From the sequence record OZ346186.1: 50,013 bases of DNA; one strand, written 5' to 3'. Origin of the DNA: a phage. The notes under the pieces were generated by a model. That model saw only the letters and a list, made by a program, of their open reading frames with translations, searched no databases and had not been told where the DNA came from. This document shows positions 30,246-42,527 of this stretch, piece after piece. How positions within the stretch are numbered: position 1 is the stretch's first letter; the number at the start of each line of letters is the position of its first letter. Both the position numbers and the translations under genes were made by a program.

Positions 30246-30947
30246 ATGAGCAAAGAAACCGAAGTGACATTTGAACAAATAGAACGCGAAACATTCATTG
30301 GCAATGCTCTCGCTACTGGTGGTCATTACCAGGCTGTTAAACCAAATCAATATTTCAAAGTGACTGGCAACCGATATAACGGCAGCAATACGCCGGACAT
30401 TGTGCGCGATTTGTGGTCTACGCCGTATGAGCTTGTCGCATGGATGGAAAGCGAATACGGTGATTATGACATCGACGCGGCGGCAAGCAAAGAAAATGCT
30501 GTATGTGAAAAATTCTACAGCAAGGAAACAAATTGCTTAAAGCGTTGGTGGGGTAGTAATAAGCATATATGGCTGAATCCACCGTACAGCAATATTACTC
30601 CATTTGTTAAGAAGGCGATTGAGCAAATGGAGCACAACAACCAGATCGACATTCTGTTACCTTGCGACACGTCAACAGGATGGTTTTATGAGGCGCAGCA
30701 GCGCGCAGCGGAAATCATCTGGATCACTGGCGAAGTTTACCAGGAGGACGGAACAGAATATTCCCGCACAGGACGCCTTGCGTTTACCTCGGCTCTTACA
30801 GGTAAGCCAGTGCAGGGAAACAACAAAGGAAGCGTTATTTTCATCATGCGCGAACTTAAAGAAGGTGAGCAGCAGAAAACTCGATACGTTAAAATCAGCG
30901 ACATTTGCCCTTCGGTGGCAGACCGTCGCGCACGGAAACGGAGCTAA
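30246..30947 (+). CDS. dam: DNA N6-adenine methyltransferase (Dam-like)
   Basis: 233 aa with NPPY catalytic motif (LNPPYS). Confidence 0.75.
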   Translation: MSKETEVTFEQIERETFIGNALATGGHYQAVKPNQYFKVTGNRYNGSNTPDIVRDLWSTPYELVAWMESEYGDYDIDAAASKENAVCEKFYSKETNCLKRWWGSNKHIWLNPPYSNITPFVKKAIEQMEHNNQIDILLPCDTSTGWFYEAQQRAAEIIWITGEVYQEDGTEYSRTGRLAFTSALTGKPVQGNNKGSVIFIMRELKEGEQQKTRYVKISDICPSVADRRARKRS

Positions 30948-34474: not shown

Positions 34475-34664
34475 CAATACGCTTTACAGTAACCAACAAA
34501 ACGCCGTCCTCATCACACAAATTATGCTCTGATATATCAAACGCTCGCATGTCAGAATGAATGAGCGTTAACATTGCGTGCATGAAGTCGTCATGTGAGA
34601 TTGAACTTGCGGCGCAGAACTTCAATATTTTGTCTATTAGCATTTGACGTAAACAATTCTTCAT
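34470..34664 (-). CDS. hypothetical ORF overlapping previous gene in +1 frame (possible frameshift partner)
   Basis: stop TAG is embedded in a box copy like other real genes; overlaps 34591..34983 by 74 nt. Confidence 0.35.
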   Translation of the reverse strand: MKNCLRQMLIDKILKFCAASSISHDDFMHAMLTLIHSDMRAFDISEHNLCDEDGVLLVTVKRIE

Positions 34665-34983
34665 CGCTCATTTCTCCGATCCTTAAAACATCCCTTACCC
34701 ATTCGTTTTGCATACCTTCCAGACTGTAAAGTTCAAACGAGAAAGGTCGATTTGCAGACCCTTTCTTACACCAGAACTTTCCACCAACTCCATCAAGATA
34801 ACCAGCGGTCATCATTCTTGCGCAAAACTCTTTTGAAACGGCGGTTGCAAACATTCTCGGCGTAAATCCTGCGGCCCTTGCGAGCCGCTCACATTCTCTA
34901 TGCTGAAATATAAATTTTGCGATATGTTGACGTGTAAACCATTCGAATGACTCACACCAGCGATACAGATCCAGAAGAAACAT
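34591..34983 (-). CDS. hypothetical protein
   Basis: 130 aa; start overlaps stop of replication protein gene. Confidence 0.5.
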   Translation of the reverse strand: MFLLDLYRWCESFEWFTRQHIAKFIFQHRECERLARAAGFTPRMFATAVSKEFCARMMTAGYLDGVGGKFWCKKGSANRPFSFELYSLEGMQNEWVRDVLRIGEMSDEELFTSNANRQNIEVLRRKFNLT

Positions 34984-34985
34984 AA

Positions 34986-36569
34986 TTACCCCAGCAATGT
35001 TGGATTTACGAAAACAACGCCATTAATCACACAAATATAATTTCTTTCTTCAAGCATCGGCAGCAGTTGCGTTTCCATACGCTTCATTACGCCAGCCTGA
35101 CCAACAAACGGCTTAACTTTTCGTGCAGCCTCATATATGGCGCGCACATTCAAGATTCCCTTGTTAGCCTTACCGTGTCGAGTGATAATCTCGATTAGTT
35201 TACCCATTTCAGCATCATCACCAGCATAGCCAGAAGCGTTGGCGGCGCTAATGTATGTTTTGCTCAACTCGCTAAACATCAGCAGTGCTTCTTGAACGGT
35301 TTCAACTTCAATCTCTTTCGACTTCTGAGGGTATCCACCAGGATTAAACCAGTTGCGGATAGTGTGCAAAACCGAAGCAATCCTGATCACCTGCTTATCC
35401 ATTTTGCCAAGAGCACCGCGCAGCATTGTATGCGAATACTTTCCGCCATCGGCAAGGTGCGGTTCCATCTCCTGACGAGCCATGTTAAGAACTCGCATTG
35501 CTGATTTGCTGATCTTAAGCTGGATGTTTGATTCACTCATGATGTTATGGATCAGCTTGAAATATTGGCTTTTCAGTTCTCCATCAACAGGTTCATAAGT
35601 AGAATCACCGTTATCATCAACAAACTTTCTACGGCCTAAAAATGATTCCTCACGCACAAGCAAATAACGCTCACTCACACCGATACCGCGCGATCCTGCA
35701 TCCATGATGGCATTTATTGTTTCATCCTGGGCAATTACCGCCATACAGCCAAGAGCTTTAAAACTCATATTGTTGTCAGCGTTTGCACGAGCTATAGAAA
35801 CATGACCATGATCCCATGCTTTTAGCACAAGTTCGCTGTTGGTTTTACGTTCGCTATTGGCATATGTCAGACCTAAAAGGCTGTTAATACTTGTTGCCTC
35901 GTCTGAAATCACAGCAAAGTTACCCTGGCGATTGTTGATTCTTGCAAGTCCTTCCGGCGTTGTGTCGGACACAGGGAAAACGATGTCACACATCTTTTCC
36001 AGTTTTTCTTCCAGATCTTCTTTCTCCTGGTACAGAGACTCCATATCAGCGCCGGAGCGCTCGCTTTTCATCTCTTTTGCAAGACCTGCCAACTTTGCCT
36101 GAATCTTTTTTCTTTCCTTCTTTCGATGATCATTAATTCTTTCCACTTCAGCAACCATAGGAGCAAGTGCCAGGCTGTTAACGGCAGATTTACCAGTTGA
36201 TGGAGGCTGGCTTGTGACAACGTAAAGAGCGGTTGGTTGATCCGTTCCGTGATACTCAACCGTGAAGCGTCCAAGCATTGCAGCAGATACACAGCCGATA
36301 AAATGCATATATGCCGATGATTCAGGGAATTGAACAGATCGAGCAATGTTTCGCGCCAACTTTCCAACAACATCAACATCATTGCCAAGAGAAATTACAG
36401 GGTAGCGATCGTTTCCGTTATTAACATCATTAACCTCACCCCAAAAGCTGGACGATTGACGGTATCCGTTAGCCTGAATGGACACGCGCACCGGAGACAA
36501 TCCTTGTGCATCAGCTAATTCGATAATTTGTTTTGGTGTTAGTTTATTGGTTTCAAACGAAAAATTCAT
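34986..36569 (-). CDS. P-loop replication ATPase (helicase/primase-associated, putative)
   Basis: 527 aa from ATG 36569 (SD aaggag); Walker A SQPPSTGKS and Walker B-like AVISDE. Confidence 0.55.
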   Translation of the reverse strand: MNFSFETNKLTPKQIIELADAQGLSPVRVSIQANGYRQSSSFWGEVNDVNNGNDRYPVISLGNDVDVVGKLARNIARSVQFPESSAYMHFIGCVSAAMLGRFTVEYHGTDQPTALYVVTSQPPSTGKSAVNSLALAPMVAEVERINDHRKKERKKIQAKLAGLAKEMKSERSGADMESLYQEKEDLEEKLEKMCDIVFPVSDTTPEGLARINNRQGNFAVISDEATSINSLLGLTYANSERKTNSELVLKAWDHGHVSIARANADNNMSFKALGCMAVIAQDETINAIMDAGSRGIGVSERYLLVREESFLGRRKFVDDNGDSTYEPVDGELKSQYFKLIHNIMSESNIQLKISKSAMRVLNMARQEMEPHLADGGKYSHTMLRGALGKMDKQVIRIASVLHTIRNWFNPGGYPQKSKEIEVETVQEALLMFSELSKTYISAANASGYAGDDAEMGKLIEIITRHGKANKGILNVRAIYEAARKVKPFVGQAGVMKRMETQLLPMLEERNYICVINGVVFVNPTLLG

Positions 36570-36596
36570 TGATGATAACTCCTTTTTGATGCGGCA

Positions 36597-36641
36597 ATAA
36601 TACCGCACCAATGCTACCCGCATTTAACAAAAAATGCTATT
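36597..36641 (-). promoter_or_regulatory. conserved box (variant) + TATTAT, upstream of replication ATPase gene
   Basis: box 36621-36641 includes stop TAG of 36637..36858; -10-like 36597-36602. Confidence 0.5.
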
Positions 36642-36858
36642 TTATCCGCTCTATGCTAACTAAGATTTTTTCTGGTTCCTTTGCACTATGGCAATGCGCG
36701 GTTACAGAATCAACAAAATCAAAGTAAAGTGATTTGTGATATGAGAATCCAATCAGCCACCCAACCATCGTTTTCTTTATTGGCCTGACTACATCGCCAG
36801 GCTTGAAGGTTTTTGTTGCTGAATAAGTCACCTTATAGCGATATTCAGTCTTGATCAC
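36637..36858 (-). CDS. hypothetical protein
   Basis: 73 aa; stop TAG embedded in box copy. Confidence 0.55.
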   Translation of the reverse strand: MIKTEYRYKVTYSATKTFKPGDVVRPIKKTMVGWLIGFSYHKSLYFDFVDSVTAHCHSAKEPEKILVSIERIK

Positions 36859-37241
36859 TTATACATAGCCTCAAACAAATGACAGCCACCAGCGGAAAAC
36901 CCTACTTCTTCGCGGTATAGCGTCCAGCGGTCGCCAGCTTCATCAAACACATAACCAGCAACAGCGCCAAGCGCGCGGCCTTGCTCAATCTGGTAGCGCT
37001 TTCCTTCTTTGAAATGCTTTTTACAAGGGATCTTGTGATCTACAAAGGTGCATTTAATTGTTTTTGTCTTGATATGACGATAGTCAGACTCAACAGCGTT
37101 TTGCCACTTACTACCCTTTGTAATGCTCTTTACCTGGAATTGTTCCAACTCGATCACATCATCGCTACCAGCAATTTTTTCGTATACAGCTTTATAACGA
37201 CCGTTCATCAAAACGTTGGTTTTATTGCAGATAACTTTCAT
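36855..37241 (-). CDS. hypothetical Cys-containing protein
   Basis: 128 aa; SD aaggag; downstream of box promoter 37272-37317. Confidence 0.55.
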   Translation of the reverse strand: MKVICNKTNVLMNGRYKAVYEKIAGSDDVIELEQFQVKSITKGSKWQNAVESDYRHIKTKTIKCTFVDHKIPCKKHFKEGKRYQIEQGRALGAVAGYVFDEAGDRWTLYREEVGFSAGGCHLFEAMYK

Positions 37242-37271
37242 CGTTTATTTCTCCTTTCGTTTCGGTGAAGT

Positions 37272-37317
37272 GATTATGCCAGGCTTTTACACCTGGCTTT
37301 TAACAAAAAGTGCTATT
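37272..37317 (-). promoter_or_regulatory. conserved box + hairpin + ATAATC (minus strand)
   Basis: box 37297-37317 includes stop TAG of methyltransferase-like gene; hairpin gccagg..cctggc; -10-like 37272-37277. Confidence 0.5.
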
Positions 37318-38023
37318 TTGCGTTAGCTTCAAAGATTGCGCGAGCAAAACCGCGCGGTGTGAGGGAGCGGATCATCTTTGTACGAGATGATTTTCCGCCA
37401 GTTTTGGCCCAGCCAGGATTATCCTTGTCGTCCTCTTTCGGTAGGATCGTTGCGCGCGGAGGAATAACAAAGCCGTTACCAGTCCAAAGGCATGTTTTCT
37501 TAAAGTACCGATCCCGCGCCGGAATAATATCAGGGAAGTCGGGATGTTTATCATCTTCCGGCAGATAGCCAGCGTAATCGCACGGATGGAACGTATAATC
37601 AGGCTTACGCCATAACGTTGACAGCTTGCCTACAGGATTCTCTATCATGTAAGGAACACCGAAATAATCAGCGATATGCGCGGCTATTTTGCAAGTGTCG
37701 GCGGCCTCATTTTGGAAGTTAGGATTTTCCATGCGCTTTTTAGCCCAATGGCGAGATCCGCTGTTTGCTAATTGTGTGCAAGGTGGGAAGGCCATAATGA
37801 AATCAGGCTTACCCCAATTTTCAAGTTTTGCGGTATATTTGAATAGATCATCAATCCACACATTAACGTAAAAAATGTTATCATGGATTATGCGCACTGA
37901 TTGGTAATCGCCGTGATCGGCATCATCGTAATTAAAGCAAATGCATTTATAACCAGCATCAGCCCAATCTTTAACAGCCTTACCAGATCCATCAAACAAA
38001 GAGAAAATTAAACCTTTATACAT
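37313..38023 (-). CDS. DNA (cytosine-5)-methyltransferase-like protein (short)
   Basis: motifs FDGSG (motif I-like), FPPCTQ (PC motif IV-like), ENPVG (ENV motif VI-like); only 236 aa so target-recognition domain unclear. Confidence 0.4.
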   Translation of the reverse strand: MYKGLIFSLFDGSGKAVKDWADAGYKCICFNYDDADHGDYQSVRIIHDNIFYVNVWIDDLFKYTAKLENWGKPDFIMAFPPCTQLANSGSRHWAKKRMENPNFQNEAADTCKIAAHIADYFGVPYMIENPVGKLSTLWRKPDYTFHPCDYAGYLPEDDKHPDFPDIIPARDRYFKKTCLWTGNGFVIPPRATILPKEDDKDNPGWAKTGGKSSRTKMIRSLTPRGFARAIFEANAK

Positions 38024-38032
38024 TTCATCACC

Positions 38033-38257
38033 TCAAAACGGAAAGCATCGCGGGCAGTTAGGATCAAAATTGCATCCGCAATCATTGACAATCATAGTTG
38101 GATCTGCAAATGCAGCGCCGCATTCATGATCCATATCCATTTCACCCAGCGCATCATCAAGCGTTCTGATCTTATATGCAACTTCAAGCGCTGCCTCTTT
38201 ATTTAATCCGGCATCTTCAGCCATTTGCAGGCGCTCAAAAAATCCGTCCTGACTCAT
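38033..38257 (-). CDS. hypothetical Cys-rich protein
   Basis: 74 aa with CGCNFDPNCPRC. Confidence 0.5.
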   Translation of the reverse strand: MSQDGFFERLQMAEDAGLNKEAALEVAYKIRTLDDALGEMDMDHECGAAFADPTMIVNDCGCNFDPNCPRCFPF

Positions 38258-38367
38258 TTCATAATCTCCTTTATAGCAACCAAAATAATAGCAAGACCAG
38301 CAGTGACAACAAAAAGACCAGCAAGGACAATCATCACTACAAATAAAATATCAAGAAATTTCATCAT
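38254..38367 (-). CDS. 37-aa single-pass membrane peptide
   Basis: hand-translated MMKFLDILFVVMIVLAGLFVVTAGLAIILVAIKEIMK; SD aaggtga; stop overlaps next ATG (ATGA). Confidence 0.35.
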   Translation of the reverse strand: MMKFLDILFVVMIVLAGLFVVTAGLAIILVAIKEIMK

Positions 38368-38414
38368 TATTATCACCTTTATTTAAAGGGAGGCGGAAAC
38401 CTCCCATTGGTTAA

Positions 38415-38642
38415 TCATACAGCCTTCCAGCTTTCAATAAACATGCTGTTTTCTTCCAGCAGTTTAATCAATTCTTCGCGCGTGTATTTGCGGATTTTAC
38501 TACCTGGATGTGAGCCAACAACAAACACACCTTTACCACTCGTGATTGTTAACTGGTTGATTCCGCAAGATTTATCCATCTTAATTGCGACGCGGTGATG
38601 TGCATCAACAGTGTTCATGATGTTAGTAACTTTAGCTTTCAT
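38415..38642 (-). CDS. hypothetical protein
   Basis: 75 aa from ATG 38642 (SD gagga); downstream of box promoter 38673-38715. Confidence 0.55.
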   Translation of the reverse strand: MKAKVTNIMNTVDAHHRVAIKMDKSCGINQLTITSGKGVFVVGSHPGSKIRKYTREELIKLLEENSMFIESWKAV

Positions 38643-38672
38643 TATGCAATCCTCATTATATTTGGTGTGATA

Positions 38673-38715
38673 ACTATACCAGGTTTGAGAAATATTGTTT
38701 AGCAATTCGTGCTAT
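38673..38715 (-). promoter_or_regulatory. conserved box (variant ATAGCACGAATTGCTAAAC) + TATAGT (minus strand)
   Basis: box about 38697-38715; -10-like 38673-38678. Confidence 0.45.
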
Positions 38716-38816
38716 CAGTTGAAATAGCTATGGCGCTTTGCTCGCTTGCCGTCTCCGCCATAATGATCATTTGCAACAGCTACCATCCAGGAATTATGGA
38801 ATATTATTAGCTTCAT
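38715..38816 (-). CDS. hypothetical 33-aa ORF
   Basis: hand-translated; stop TGA abuts box copy as in real genes, but no SD. Confidence 0.2.
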   Translation of the reverse strand: MKLIIFHNSWMVAVANDHYGGDGKRAKRHSYFN

Positions 38817-39098
38817 CTAATTAATGCCAACAACGTTAAAACTTACAGCTTTTGTTGCGCTAAATACATACGCTTCAACAGCCTCACCAAATACACGAAT
38901 TTTTCCATAGCCGTACTGCGAATTCATATTGCGCCAAACCGTCCTGTTAGAACAGAACGCGTTACCAGTCTTGATAAGATTATCCATCTCTTTTCTTAGG
39001 TCATGATAATCAAGCCAGAATCTATAAGCGCGTTGTTTAATGAGTTGCGCCTTGATTGTTTCGGCTGAGTTTTTAAAATCGCTGTTTTTGTATGCCAT
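38817..39098 (-). CDS. hypothetical protein
   Basis: 93 aa; start overlaps upstream stop. Confidence 0.55.
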   Translation of the reverse strand: MAYKNSDFKNSAETIKAQLIKQRAYRFWLDYHDLRKEMDNLIKTGNAFCSNRTVWRNMNSQYGYGKIRVFGEAVEAYVFSATKAVSFNVVGIN

Positions 39099-39292
39099 TA
39101 CACAACCTCCATAAAAGTATTGAATCCACGCAGTTTGAAAGCATTGCCATGTTTAACAACGTTCCATGTCAGGCCGGAGTGATACGCAACCATATCCTCA
39201 AGATCAATTGTGATGATAGCGCCTTTCTTAAAGATTCCTTTCTCGTGAGTGGTGTCACGCTGTACAACTTTAACATCAACCTGATTTTCCAT
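39098..39292 (-). CDS. hypothetical protein
   Basis: 64 aa from ATG 39292 (SD gagga); downstream of box promoter. Confidence 0.5.
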   Translation of the reverse strand: MENQVDVKVVQRDTTHEKGIFKKGAIITIDLEDMVAYHSGLTWNVVKHGNAFKLRGFNTFMEVV

Positions 39293-39322
39293 TTTTTTAA
39301 TCCTCGTTCGTTGTCGATGCGC

Positions 39323-39369
39323 ATAATATACCAATCAGAGGCGCATCGGTTTTAACAAAAAGTGCTATT
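39323..39369 (-). promoter_or_regulatory. conserved box + TATTAT (minus strand)
   Basis: box 39349-39369 abuts stop TAA of 39369..39635; -10-like about 39323-39328. Confidence 0.5.
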
Positions 39370-39635
39370 TAGTCCAGGAATTCGATTTCGCGCTCGCCAG
39401 TTAACGGATCTTTAATCCAGAATCCGAGCGCCTCACCGTAAATACCGCCATAGAATCCAAGCGCCGACAGATCCTCACCTTTAACAAATACCAGATCCCC
39501 GCTACGGCTTACGTGAGATACGTTAACGATAACCGGAAAGGTGCGATCCTTAAATGCAGGCCGCAGGGCGTAACACCCGTTATTGAGCAAACGTGCTTTG
39601 CGCTTAACTGGAATAGGTGCATTGATTCGCGCCAT
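39369..39635 (-). CDS. hypothetical protein
   Basis: 88 aa; stop TAA fused to box copy. Confidence 0.55.
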   Translation of the reverse strand: MARINAPIPVKRKARLLNNGCYALRPAFKDRTFPVIVNVSHVSRSGDLVFVKGEDLSALGFYGGIYGEALGFWIKDPLTGEREIEFLD

Positions 39636-39648
39636 CTTTATTTCTCCT

Positions 39649-39894
39649 TCATTGTTGATCGTGTTTAACTGCCATCAGAATATCACATGACTCGTTAATA
39701 AATTTTGCCATGCGCTTATCATCCCCATCAGGGATTAGCGCGTTAAACTCGCGTTTGCTACTGAACACAGTCACTTTATGGAATGATGCGAACGGCATCG
39801 ACGGGAACTCGACGGTTTGCGTCAAGATCCGCAATCCCATCTTTTTGGCCCTTACTTGGGCCTCAGCGAGTTCAAAATCCACTTCATTAATCAT
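39649..39894 (-). CDS. hypothetical protein
   Basis: 81 aa. Confidence 0.5.
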   Translation of the reverse strand: MINEVDFELAEAQVRAKKMGLRILTQTVEFPSMPFASFHKVTVFSSKREFNALIPDGDDKRMAKFINESCDILMAVKHDQQ

Positions 39895-40163
39895 TTCTTG
39901 ATCTCCTCAGCGATAAACTTCAGGACTTTGCGCAAAAACACTTCATTATTGATGGTCGCTGGCAATTCTTCTTTTACTTCTTGCGGCAGGTAAACGTTGC
40001 CATGCCAGGTTAAGCAATCGTAGTTGATACGATAAGAGCAAAGCCACTCGCAATCGTTATCCGCTTCCCAAATGCAGAGTTGCAGAACATCACCGAAATC
40101 CTCAACAGTCAGATCCAGACCGTGACGCTTTGCAAAGTTGAAAGTGGTTTTGCTGATGTTCAT
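39891..40163 (-). CDS. hypothetical protein (first gene of leftward early block)
   Basis: 90 aa; SD caggag; downstream of box promoter 40201-40246. Confidence 0.55.
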   Translation of the reverse strand: MNISKTTFNFAKRHGLDLTVEDFGDVLQLCIWEADNDCEWLCSYRINYDCLTWHGNVYLPQEVKEELPATINNEVFLRKVLKFIAEEIKK

Positions 40164-40200
40164 TTGCTTTCTCCTGATGGGTATCTCGTTTCGATGTGTG

Positions 40201-40246
40201 CATTATGCCGAATCCAGTCAGGCACGTTTTAACAAAAAGTGCTATT
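40201..40246 (-). promoter_or_regulatory. conserved box + ATAATG (minus strand), first promoter of leftward early block
   Basis: box 40226-40246; -10-like 40201-40206. Confidence 0.5.
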
Positions 40247-40260
40247 TGCTTACTGGTCAT

Positions 40261-40300
40261 TATTCCATCTATTCCATTAATCAGGAATAACAGGAATAAC
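40261..40300. repeat. short tandem direct repeats (attccat x2; caggaataa x2)
   Basis: tattccatctattccatt and caggaataacaggaataac read directly. Confidence 0.5.
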
Positions 40301-40500
40301 TCATTCGCGATCACCTGGATTGGGAGACTTTGAGTTTGGTCAATTTTAATCAAGTGATTAACTTTTTGTGTGGAGGGGATAGAGAAACGCGGCCTCTTGC
40401 GTCCTTTCCGGCAATCCTGGCGCGCACATCTGTTATTTTTGTTCCCCATGTTATCTCAAATAAGCCTCCGCACTTTTAGATAACAGAATCGGCGTTCATA

Positions 40501-40720
40501 AACAAAAAGAACAAAATAAAATTTATATATATACCCATAAAATCAATAAGTTAGTTATATATGTATTTATATTTGTTATTTACTGTTGAGCTTGTTATAT
40601 GGGTATATGGTGGGGTGGTATTGTTTGTGGTGATATGTATGTGTGATTGTATATTTTTTAATCAATGGTGATGTGTGGTGATTTTTGTATGTATATATAT
40701 GGGTATGGAGCAATCCTCCG
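40501..40720. repeat. AT-rich and GT-rich low-complexity region with IHF-like site; homolog of 20341-20520
   Basis: same 15-mer at 40540-40554 followed by similar tatat..tatttatatttgtt and GTG/TGG-rich stretch. Confidence 0.6.
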
Positions 40721-40899
40721 TCAACCAAGTCAACAAGGTCATTTTTAACAGAAAAACCAATGACTTAACTGAAGCATTTTGTTATCTTTAAACGCGCCAC
40801 ATGACAAAAATTGTTATTAAAACACAAAAATACATTGACACGTATGAAAGGCAAGGCAATAATGCATCCAGTTTAAACGCAACAAAAGGAGTAGACGCC

Positions 40900-41385
40900 A
40901 TGAGCGAAGAAAATATTAGCACCATGTCGCGTAGTGAGTTCTGCGATATGCTTCGCAGCCTGGGTGCGGCAATTGGTAGCGGCGAGCGTAACAATGTATT
41001 CATGCCAGCACTTTTCTTGTGCGCTAACGTGGAGAACGGCGACGCAATTACAGCATCGTACATGCGCCAGGTTGTAAACCGCGTACCAGAAGTGAAGCAA
41101 AAAGGCGTGATCAGCATTAAGCGAAAGGTGACTGATGAGGGTGATGGCTTTGTGTTTACGCTCACAGAAGCCAAAAGCAAGCCACGCGTTCTGACTGGTG
41201 AAGAAATCGACGAGATCGCAGAAAAGCGCGCAGAGAAGGCGGTAAGCAAAATTCTTAATCACCTGGTAAGCGTAATGCCAAATATCACAGACCTGGAAGG
41301 CGACAAACTTGCTGGAGCGTGTGAGGCTATCGGGCGCTACCAGGATATGATTCGTAAACTCGCTGGAGGAAAAGAGGATGAATAA
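40900..41385 (+). CDS. hypothetical protein (first gene of rightward block)
   Basis: 161 aa from ATG 40900 (SD aaaggag); track ORF from 40801. Confidence 0.55.
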   Translation: MSEENISTMSRSEFCDMLRSLGAAIGSGERNNVFMPALFLCANVENGDAITASYMRQVVNRVPEVKQKGVISIKRKVTDEGDGFVFTLTEAKSKPRVLTGEEIDEIAEKRAEKAVSKILNHLVSVMPNITDLEGDKLAGACEAIGRYQDMIRKLAGGKEDE

Positions 41386-41638
41386 GGCATTAATTGGAGT
41401 TTTGATTGCAATTGCTACCCTGACCGGATGCGAAAAGGCATCGGAATCAACGGTTGTCGTAGGCGTGGAGTCAGATTTCAAAGTCGGTCGCCTGTTCACT
41501 GTTGACGGATGCACAGCATACAGATTCTATGATAACGGTCGCGCGATCTATTACACCAATTGCAAAGGCGCAACGGATAGCACGTACAACAGCGGAAAGA
41601 ACGTAATGCACCAGCAAGTCACAACAGATATTAAATAG
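41378..41638 (+). CDS. lipoprotein
   Basis: 86 aa; signal peptide MNKALIGVLIAIATLTGC nearly identical to that of the Cor-like gene; stop TAG embedded in box. Confidence 0.55.
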   Translation: MNKALIGVLIAIATLTGCEKASESTVVVGVESDFKVGRLFTVDGCTAYRFYDNGRAIYYTNCKGATDSTYNSGKNVMHQQVTTDIK

Positions 41639-41678
41639 CACTTTTTGTTAAAACGCCAGGCGCAAAACCTGGCATAAT
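41634..41678 (+). promoter_or_regulatory. conserved box + hairpin + CATAAT
   Basis: box 41634-41654 includes stop TAG; hairpin gccagg..cctggc; -10-like 41673-41678. Confidence 0.5.
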
Positions 41679-41710
41679 AGCCTCATCGAAACGAGATTGA
41701 GGAAAACAAA

Positions 41711-41896
41711 ATGGCACGTCGCATCACCAAAGACCTTAAAGTCCTGAACAAAGAAAACGTAGTTAAAATTCTGGTTATCTGGGGCTACAACGAAGAAACA
41801 GCAAAGCAGAAGGTAGAGGCAGGTTATGACCTGGCTGTAAAAGCAATGCCAAACGACGACGCCAAAGGAATTGCAAACTATGTAGCTTTCTTTTAA
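41711..41896 (+). CDS. hypothetical protein
   Basis: 61 aa; SD gagga; conserved leader. Confidence 0.5.
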   Translation: MARRITKDLKVLNKENVVKILVIWGYNEETAKQKVEAGYDLAVKAMPNDDAKGIANYVAFF

Positions 41897-41911
41897 TTAG
41901 CAGGTGAATAA

Positions 41912-42097
41912 ATGAAAACGAAATTAGTCCATAAATCAGAAATCAAGATCGGCGATACTGTGATTCACAACGGAGAGCTTAGAACGGTTGGCAAAGAGTC
42001 AATAAGCCACGATGAATTTATGGGGATTTTGTTGTTCGGTGACTCTTATCGTCTTGGTTACAAGATGGTTGAGCTTGTGGAAGAAGTGAAATTCTAA
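41912..42097 (+). CDS. hypothetical small protein
   Basis: 61 aa; SD aggtga; pattern SEIKIGDTV...G.LRTV shared with 42345..42527. Confidence 0.5.
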   Translation: MKTKLVHKSEIKIGDTVIHNGELRTVGKESISHDEFMGILLFGDSYRLGYKMVELVEEVKF

Positions 42098-42141
42098 ATA
42101 GCACTTTTTGTTAAAACTCAAAAACGATAACCAGGCATAAT
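42097..42141 (+). promoter_or_regulatory. conserved box + CATAAT
   Basis: box 42097-42117; -10-like 42136-42141; followed by about 200-nt leader. Confidence 0.5.
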
Positions 42142-42344
42142 AAATCACATAGACGGGCGGCAAGGATTGCTGCGGGAGAGGAGCAACGCAGGGGCTTGAT
42201 CGAAGTGTCATGATTCCCAACCGTTAGGCCAGAACTATCACACTCGCCACCAGGCAGAACGCTAGATAGGTCACTGAGCTGAGGCTACCGACGAAGTGAA
42301 GCCCGTCACCAAAGATTAAACGATTATTTATGTGAAAGGGGTTA

Positions 42345-42527
42345 ATGATGGATAAGATCATCAAAATGAGCGAAGTCAAGCCGGGAATGATGGTTAAGTT
42401 TGCTGGCAAATATCGCCTGGTACTGGATAACTGCCGAAAAGAGAACATTCTCACCATTCGCGTTAACGGCAAGGCGCAGCTATTCGCCCCCACCTCAGAT
42501 ATTAATGTTGAGGTCAGAATTAAGTAA
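42345..42527 (+). CDS. hypothetical small protein (paralog-like of 41912..42097)
   Basis: 60 aa; possible start at 42348; preceded by about 200-nt leader. Confidence 0.5.
   Translation: MMDKIIKMSEVKPGMMVKFAGKYRLVLDNCRKENILTIRVNGKAQLFAPTSDINVEVRIK

Follow-up and report, generated by a model that had tools for sequence, protein, structure and literature searches.

The window analysed here is the whole stretch of 50,013 nucleotides of phage DNA held in sequence record OZ346186.1. We find that a minus-strand open reading frame (ORF) of this window, referred to below as phage dcm, very probably encodes an active orphan S-adenosylmethionine-dependent DNA cytosine-5 methyltransferase (C5-methyltransferase) of a large phage-specific mini family, to which we would assign, by analogy, a role at CCWGG sites and against restriction. 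The gene itself is already known: it is annotated in essentially identical genomes, and both the activity of its orthologue and the role of that orthologue as a trigger of the retron Ec86 have been published.

37313..38023, minus strand: coding sequence, with its stop codon, of phage Dcm, the mini C5-cytosine DNA methyltransferase, assigned from the ORF, the phrog_757 match and near-identical annotated phages.

On the basis of its sequence, phage dcm is the same gene as the dcm of phages K42 and KarlJaspers. K42 is a KarlJaspers (Bas06)-like Hanrivervirus, and the work on its Dcm appeared as a preprint (bioRxiv 10.1101/2023.08.16.553469) and, as PMC12640716 cites it, in Wang et al., Cell Rep 2024;43:114857. 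We made the protein and DNA alignments to the KarlJaspers Bas06 gene (bas06_0055) and compared K42 through its published features. Gene, locus, genus (Hanrivervirus) and length (711 bp, 236 amino acids) are all shared, and the KarlJaspers protein aligns with phage Dcm without gaps at 97% identity, with seven substitutions. At the codon level there are 38 synonymous differences from KarlJaspers and 7 non-synonymous ones, indicating purifying selection on dcm. The four residues studied in K42 Dcm, C82, E128, K175 and K176, are present in phage Dcm at identical positions. Residue 84 (37772-37774, minus strand) is a Gln in phage Dcm and in phage haarsle (PPCTQ), where KarlJaspers and the consensus of the family have an Asp (PPCTD); this position lies two residues after the catalytic Cys, and Gln is the residue of the canonical PCQ motif.

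The K42 experiments link this gene to cytosine methylation and to retron sensing. All K42 escapers of Ec86 (4 of 4) had the 711-bp dcm gene hit by a deletion, by a frameshift at dG451 or by a dC-to-dA change 9 bp upstream of its start (10.1101/2023.08.16.553469). Toxicity of expressed K42 Dcm was confined to cells that carry Ec86, and the C82A/E128A/K175A/K176A mutant was inert (10.1101/2023.08.16.553469). When measured by LC-MS (liquid chromatography coupled to mass spectrometry), 5-methylcytosine (5mC) on the multicopy single-stranded DNA (msDNA) of the retron was high with wild-type Dcm and low with the quadruple mutant, and defence was lost when either C of the msDNA stem's CCTGG was changed (10.1101/2023.08.16.553469). 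Such a Dcm is encoded by 34 of the 35 Ec86-sensitive phages (10.1101/2023.08.16.553469), and later papers take the triggering of Ec86 by Dcm as established.

The upstream escape mutations can be placed on the window, which shares with K42/KarlJaspers the context of the ribosome-binding site as well as the G at nucleotide 451 of the gene.

38028..38034, minus strand: Shine-Dalgarno GAGGTGA, read from the sequence at 5-11 nt upstream of the start codon (ATG).

The base at -9 of dcm falls inside this Shine-Dalgarno and is a G on the coding strand, that is, a C on the plus strand, which agrees in both position and identity with the published change. From this agreement we infer that the K42 upstream escape mutations strike the Shine-Dalgarno. 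The same element overlaps the TGA stop (38033-38035) of the preceding 74-amino-acid ORF, indicating that dcm is part of a leftward series of genes set close together.

The first-pass annotation of this DNA had described a 236-amino-acid ORF with FDGSG, PPCTQ and ENPVG motifs; translation confirms it, on the minus strand, with an ATG start and a stop codon after residue 236, and places the motifs at F10-D-G-S-G14, F79-P-P-C82-T-Q84 and E128-N-P-V-G132. The name C5-cytosine-methyltransferase-like given there also holds, being borne out by the invariant Cys and Glu, the annotation in near-identical phages, the 5mC produced by the K42/KarlJaspers orthologue and the predicted fold. The positions that matter most for this assignment are the following.

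37778..37780, minus strand: Cys82 codon, motif IV (PPC-TQ); the predicted catalytic nucleophile, without variation across the diverse alignment and named as the catalytic residue in K42 Dcm.
37640..37642, minus strand: Glu128 codon, in the I-E-N-P of motif VI, which corresponds to ENV; invariant, paired by hhalign with LENV of Escherichia coli Dcm and mutated in K42 Dcm^mut.
37370..37477, minus strand: residues 183-218, the sole stand-in (~35 amino acids) for a target-recognition domain (TRD), with a conserved LGG-K-S-x-R-T-K inside, delimited from secondary structure, a predicted local distance difference test score (pLDDT) of 64-86 and the family consensus.

Conservation was assessed in a diverse alignment (A2) of 60 family members at 34-55% identity to phage Dcm. 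The Pro-Cys nucleophile of motif IV, P81-C82, is present, with C82 invariant and F79, P80 and T83 conserved in at least 90% of the sequences. Motif VI is likewise present as E128-N129-P130, in which E128 and P130 are invariant and which hhalign sets against the LENV of E. coli Dcm. In the motif I region, F10-D-G-S-G14 corresponds to a family consensus of SLFDxTG whose first Gly is not conserved. Invariant positions comprise C82, E128, P130, P147, Y173, W180 and P188, and those conserved in at least 90% of the members include F79, P80, T83, K175, T177, R219, S220, P223 and G225. Towards the C-terminus, a motif IX-like segment, R219-S-L-T-P-R-G-F-A, is followed by a helix, and BLASTP aligns this segment with RRLTPRECAR of E. 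coli Dcm.

The ORF is far from being a chance occurrence, and the family to which the protein belongs is very large and phage-borne. A PHROGs profile search matched phrog_757, 'DNA methyltransferase', at E=2e-85 over residues 2-235, and phage dcm agrees with this family in full length and architecture, homologues being typically 210-260 amino acids long. We recovered 1,637 homologues in a database clustered at 90%, mostly of 225-260 amino acids and often on contigs of ~40-55 kb, and 1,250 clusters at 50% identity. By tblastn, homologues occur in 1,502 of 50,697 phage records, spanning Drexlerviridae, Dhillonvirus, 136-168-kb E. coli phages and many Klebsiella phages. Phage Dcm is therefore best filed in a phage mini-Dcm family (phrog_757) within the C5-methyltransferase superfamily. 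We also observed the mini-methyltransferase module fused inside larger phage proteins, namely BFVD A0A6J5SE15 (1397 amino acids) and A0A6J5NPY6 (1126 amino acids), and further in P0269 (563 amino acids), P0210 (453 amino acids) and P0213 (401 amino acids); one larger fusion protein is annotated 'Helicase/UvrB, N-terminal'.

The phage carries a second methyltransferase gene, which the first-pass annotation had listed as Dam-like alongside dcm and which its Pfam match supports.

30246..30947, plus strand: N6-adenine DNA methyltransferase of the Dam family, encoded by this phage in addition to Dcm and assigned from Pfam PF05869.

This companion matches PF05869, 'DNA N-6-adenine-methyltransferase (Dam)', strongly and over its full length (E=2.3e-60, with 203.5 bits where the cut-off is 28.1), and its orthologue in phage JakobBernoulli, bas07_0041, is labelled 'Dam-like N6-adenine methyltransferase'. 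That it acts at GATC is an assumption based on the name of its family and on GATC not being avoided in the window (268 sites, observed/expected 1.00). CCWGG, the assumed target of phage Dcm by analogy, is not avoided either: the window has 125 sites (observed/expected 1.03), about twice the 66 expected from base composition. Many other palindromes of the restriction type are strongly depleted there, with observed/expected counts of 0/18 for AAGCTT, 0/12 for GGATCC, 0/10 for AGGCCT, 0/9 for GCATGC and 0/9 for CCATGG, together with 1/18 for TCCGGA, 2/20 for GGCGCC, 76/132 for GGCC and 2/12.6 for CCSGG. Two points favour CCWGG as the site of phage Dcm, the mutagenesis of the msDNA CCTGG in the K42 work and the absence of avoidance in the window.

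Taken together, we propose the following course of events. The gene is transcribed leftward within its run of small minus-strand genes, and the protein retains a catalytic core made up of a motif I-like LFDGSG, C82, E128, a strand with K175/T177 where QxRxR would stand, and a motif IX-like RSLTPRGFA with the C-terminal helix, with the TRD almost absent. During infection the enzyme may methylate the phage DNA at Dcm-type CCWGG sites; jointly with the phage Dam acting at GATC, this could free the phage from the dam/dcm status of its host and shield it from restriction of the EcoRII type and similar systems. The price of such methylation would be detectability by retron Ec86; for the orthologue it has been shown that its expression raises 5mC on Ec86 msDNA and in this way activates Ec86/Eco1 abortive infection. 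The anti-restriction part of this proposal is a presumed role.

Several observations weigh against this reading, and they concern the identity of the enzyme, its site and its role. The PF00145 profile reached only E=0.22 (11.4 bits, the cut-off being 22) and covered residues 7-94 only, an NCBIfam profile search with the phage Dcm protein gave no match, and a profile built from the 60 family sequences and run against PDB sequences matched only the N-terminal part of M.HaeIII, at E=0.54. Motif VIII, Q-x-R-x-R, is absent, its strand reading Y173-F-K175-K-T177-C-L-W180 with Lys and Thr in place of two Arg, and there is no canonical motif X, GN(A/S)V not being recognisable. CCWGG specificity is assumed by analogy with E. 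coli Dcm, to which the similarity is undetectable, and the host Dcm alone could explain why CCWGG is not avoided. The genome of MG1655, the host of the K42 experiments, holds a dcm gene, and we take this strain to be dcm+. The retron was not triggered by the Dcm of this host, which also left the msDNA without appreciable methylation (10.1101/2023.08.16.553469), so the phage enzyme differs from the host Dcm in access, level or site. Finally, among Drexlerviridae the possession of methyltransferase genes did not relate in any simple way to restriction resistance in the BASEL study.

Regarding identity, the weakness of the profile matches extends to the family as a whole. Among the 60 diverse members, 2 reach E<0.01 with PF00145; phmmer with the single phage Dcm protein found no match among PDB sequences, and the search of those sequences with the family profile also returned chance matches to a kinase and to short-chain dehydrogenases/reductases (SDRs). 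PHROGs alone recognised the protein; the other sequence searches were unable to establish the family, and a structure prediction was needed. An AlphaFold2 model computed from a 48-sequence alignment was confident, with a pLDDT of 92.6 and a predicted template modelling score (pTM) of 0.90. The predicted fold is that of a C5-methyltransferase catalytic domain, with ~183-198 of the 236 residues aligning to the catalytic core. In the model, F10-D-G-S-G14 lies at the end of strand 5-9, where the Rossmann loop is expected, and Foldseek ranks DNMT3A/3B at the top with E=4e-8. The Y, K, T and W of the motif VIII-like strand are conserved in the family.

The same model makes clear what the protein lacks. 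Relative to enzymes of ~330 amino acids, a normal TRD, ~80 amino acids or more between motifs VIII and IX, is absent, as only residues 183-218 (~35 amino acids) part the motif VIII-like strand (177-182) from the motif IX-like segment, and these residues are the least confident part of the prediction. The earlier remark that the protein is too short for a typical TRD is therefore correct, at ~35 amino acids as opposed to ~80 or more.

This shortness leaves some room for the view that phage Dcm is an active C5-methyltransferase whose target is not simply the host-like CCWGG, which we consider rather unlikely yet the best of the alternatives. The motif it reads might be shorter or relaxed, it might work as a dimer in the manner of DNMT3, or it might prefer a hairpin or imperfect duplex such as the msDNA stem. 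The small size of the TRD equivalent fits such a view, as does the fact that the best structural matches, DNMT3A/3B, are small-TRD enzymes, which are known in general to act as oligomers. The lack of sequence similarity to E. coli Dcm is a further point in its favour, together with the methylation of msDNA and triggering of the retron in the K42 host by the phage enzyme but not by the host Dcm. A literature search found no methylome determination: for T1-like phage C5-methyltransferases it returned no usable methylome or specificity data, the TLS phage paper is silent on methyltransferases, and Olsen et al. touch on nothing beyond dam and the resistance of pSf-1 to restriction. On the other hand, changing either C of the msDNA CCTGG abolished defence, and CCWGG is not avoided while CCSGG and GGCC are, which argues against a broad CC, CCNGG or GGCC specificity. 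Somewhat speculatively, the DNA recognition of the mini-Dcm family could be of a kind undescribed for bacterial and phage C5-methyltransferases (DNMT3-like dimer, relaxed or structure-dependent); if true, the real target would be something other than plain CCWGG, and this novel recognition would explain why msDNA is methylated by the phage enzyme but not by the host Dcm.

A second alternative keeps the methyltransferase but gives it a selected role other than protection from restriction, in gene expression, replication, packaging or the countering of another defence. We judge it unlikely. The absence in BASEL of a simple pattern relating methyltransferases to restriction sensitivity in Drexlerviridae would be consistent with such a role, and so would the conserved hairpin with two CCWGG sites directly 3' of dcm, which is, however, not kept with these sites in the Klebsiella phage homologue. 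CCWGG is also already methylated by most laboratory hosts. Against this stands the classic use of orphan phage methyltransferases, which is anti-restriction. The restriction panel of BASEL reportedly held no system targeting CCWGG, so that its negative outcome may be uninformative.

The hairpin lies at 37278-37297 within a 71-nt spacer, 37242-37312 on the minus strand, that directly follows dcm. It reads GCCAGG-UGUAAAA-GCCUGGC, carries two CCWGG sites, has an RNA folding z of -2.75 and is followed by the invariant GGCATAAT. The 86 nt around it are identical to KarlJaspers at 85 of 86 positions, versus only 93% identity for the dcm coding sequence. In a Klebsiella phage the stem is swapped for CCCC...GGGG, with no CCWGG, and CATAAT and TTG.TAAA are kept. 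A promoter-like or regulatory part in the expression of the genes that follow may fall to this element. A promoter and terminator scan of 34500-42500 gave a match count not above that of shuffled sequence and nothing convincing beside dcm.

Weakest of all, and highly improbable, is a reuse of the fold for other C5 chemistry (e.g. carboxymethyl, in line with the different modification suggested by the first-pass annotation), for an RNA substrate as in Dnmt2-like tRNA methylation, or as an inactive remnant: the non-canonical motifs VIII and X speak for it, but LC-MS on the orthologue detected 5-methylcytosine in DNA in dependence on C82/E128/K175/K176, leaving a different chemistry without support, DNA methyltransferases outscore Dnmt2 in the comparison with the model, and the catalytic residues do not vary over the 1,250 clusters and the gene is under purifying selection, which speaks against an inactive remnant.

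We therefore retain the active mini C5-methyltransferase as the preferred reading and compare it with better-known enzymes. E. coli K-12 Dcm (b1961, 472 amino acids) presumably has the same chemistry and, by the assumption of the literature, the same CCWGG target; M.EcoRII is a CCWGG C5-methyltransferase related to this enzyme. Motifs IV (PC) and VI (ENV/ENP) of E. coli Dcm can be paired with those of phage Dcm by hhalign and motif IX (RRLTPRECAR/RSLTPRGFAR) by BLASTP, whereas phage Dcm is half as long, lacks the large TRD and the N-terminal extension, and its gene, unlike E. coli dcm, has no adjacent vsr. Orthology to E. coli K-12 Dcm was rejected (BLASTP E=1.2, hhalign E=0.14); in the absence of significant similarity, 'Dcm-like' is a functional label and not a statement of orthology.

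The closest structural neighbours are the catalytic domains of DNMT3A and DNMT3B, which have a small TRD and share 15-17% sequence identity with phage Dcm. DNMT3A/3B are eukaryotic, CpG-specific enzymes that form oligomers with DNMT3L and bear regulatory domains. Compared with the textbook bacterial enzymes M.HhaI and M.HaeIII (PF00145), phage Dcm is ~90 residues shorter, essentially by the TRD, and has Y-x-K-x-T instead of the QxRxR of motif VIII.

The small residual interest of the gene lies in its recognition sequence, in how specificity could arise from the ~35 residues that replace the TRD, and in the actual benefit against restriction. It is also of modest relevance to the trade-off between phage counter-defence and sensing by retrons, and phage Dcm might serve as a very small C5-methyltransferase scaffold.

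By nucleotide comparison the phage is a Hanrivervirus (Drexlerviridae, Tempevirinae, T1-like). Its dcm locus is 99.3-99.7% identical to those of phages haarsle and JakobBernoulli: the 2.4 kb around dcm share 99.7% identity with Escherichia phage JakobBernoulli (BASEL Bas07, MZ501079), and the dcm of haarsle encodes an identical protein (100%) at a DNA identity of 99.7%. In JakobBernoulli the counterpart, bas07_0054, is labelled 'Dcm-like C5 cytosine methyltransferase', and other records name the gene dcm, DNA-cytosine methylase or site-specific DNA methylase. The BASEL paper describes N6-adenine and C5-cytosine methyltransferase genes as abundant in Drexlerviridae. The genome as a whole is a mosaic Hanrivervirus, since bases 1-25000 (the structural half) are closest to G29-2, at 96.9%, and bases 25014-50013 (the replication/early half) are closest to herni, with herni and pSf-1 at ~95%; no single record in the searched collection matches the window throughout.

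Two further observations concern existing records. In swan01 (L004, 401-1174) and aalborv (L006, 401-1174) the gene is annotated as longer, 774 bp and 257 amino acids (protein P0001), with a start further upstream that overlaps the previous gene; the ORF in the window can only be of 236 amino acids. In addition, MG065671 (Campylobacter phage A120), MG065665 (A131) and ~37 others are unannotated ~47-kb records with T1-like DNA. Records of this A120/A131 type carry a homologue of the methyltransferase at 45% identity and show megablast matches to the window, and their Campylobacter jejuni host label looks odd for Drexlerviridae-like genomes.
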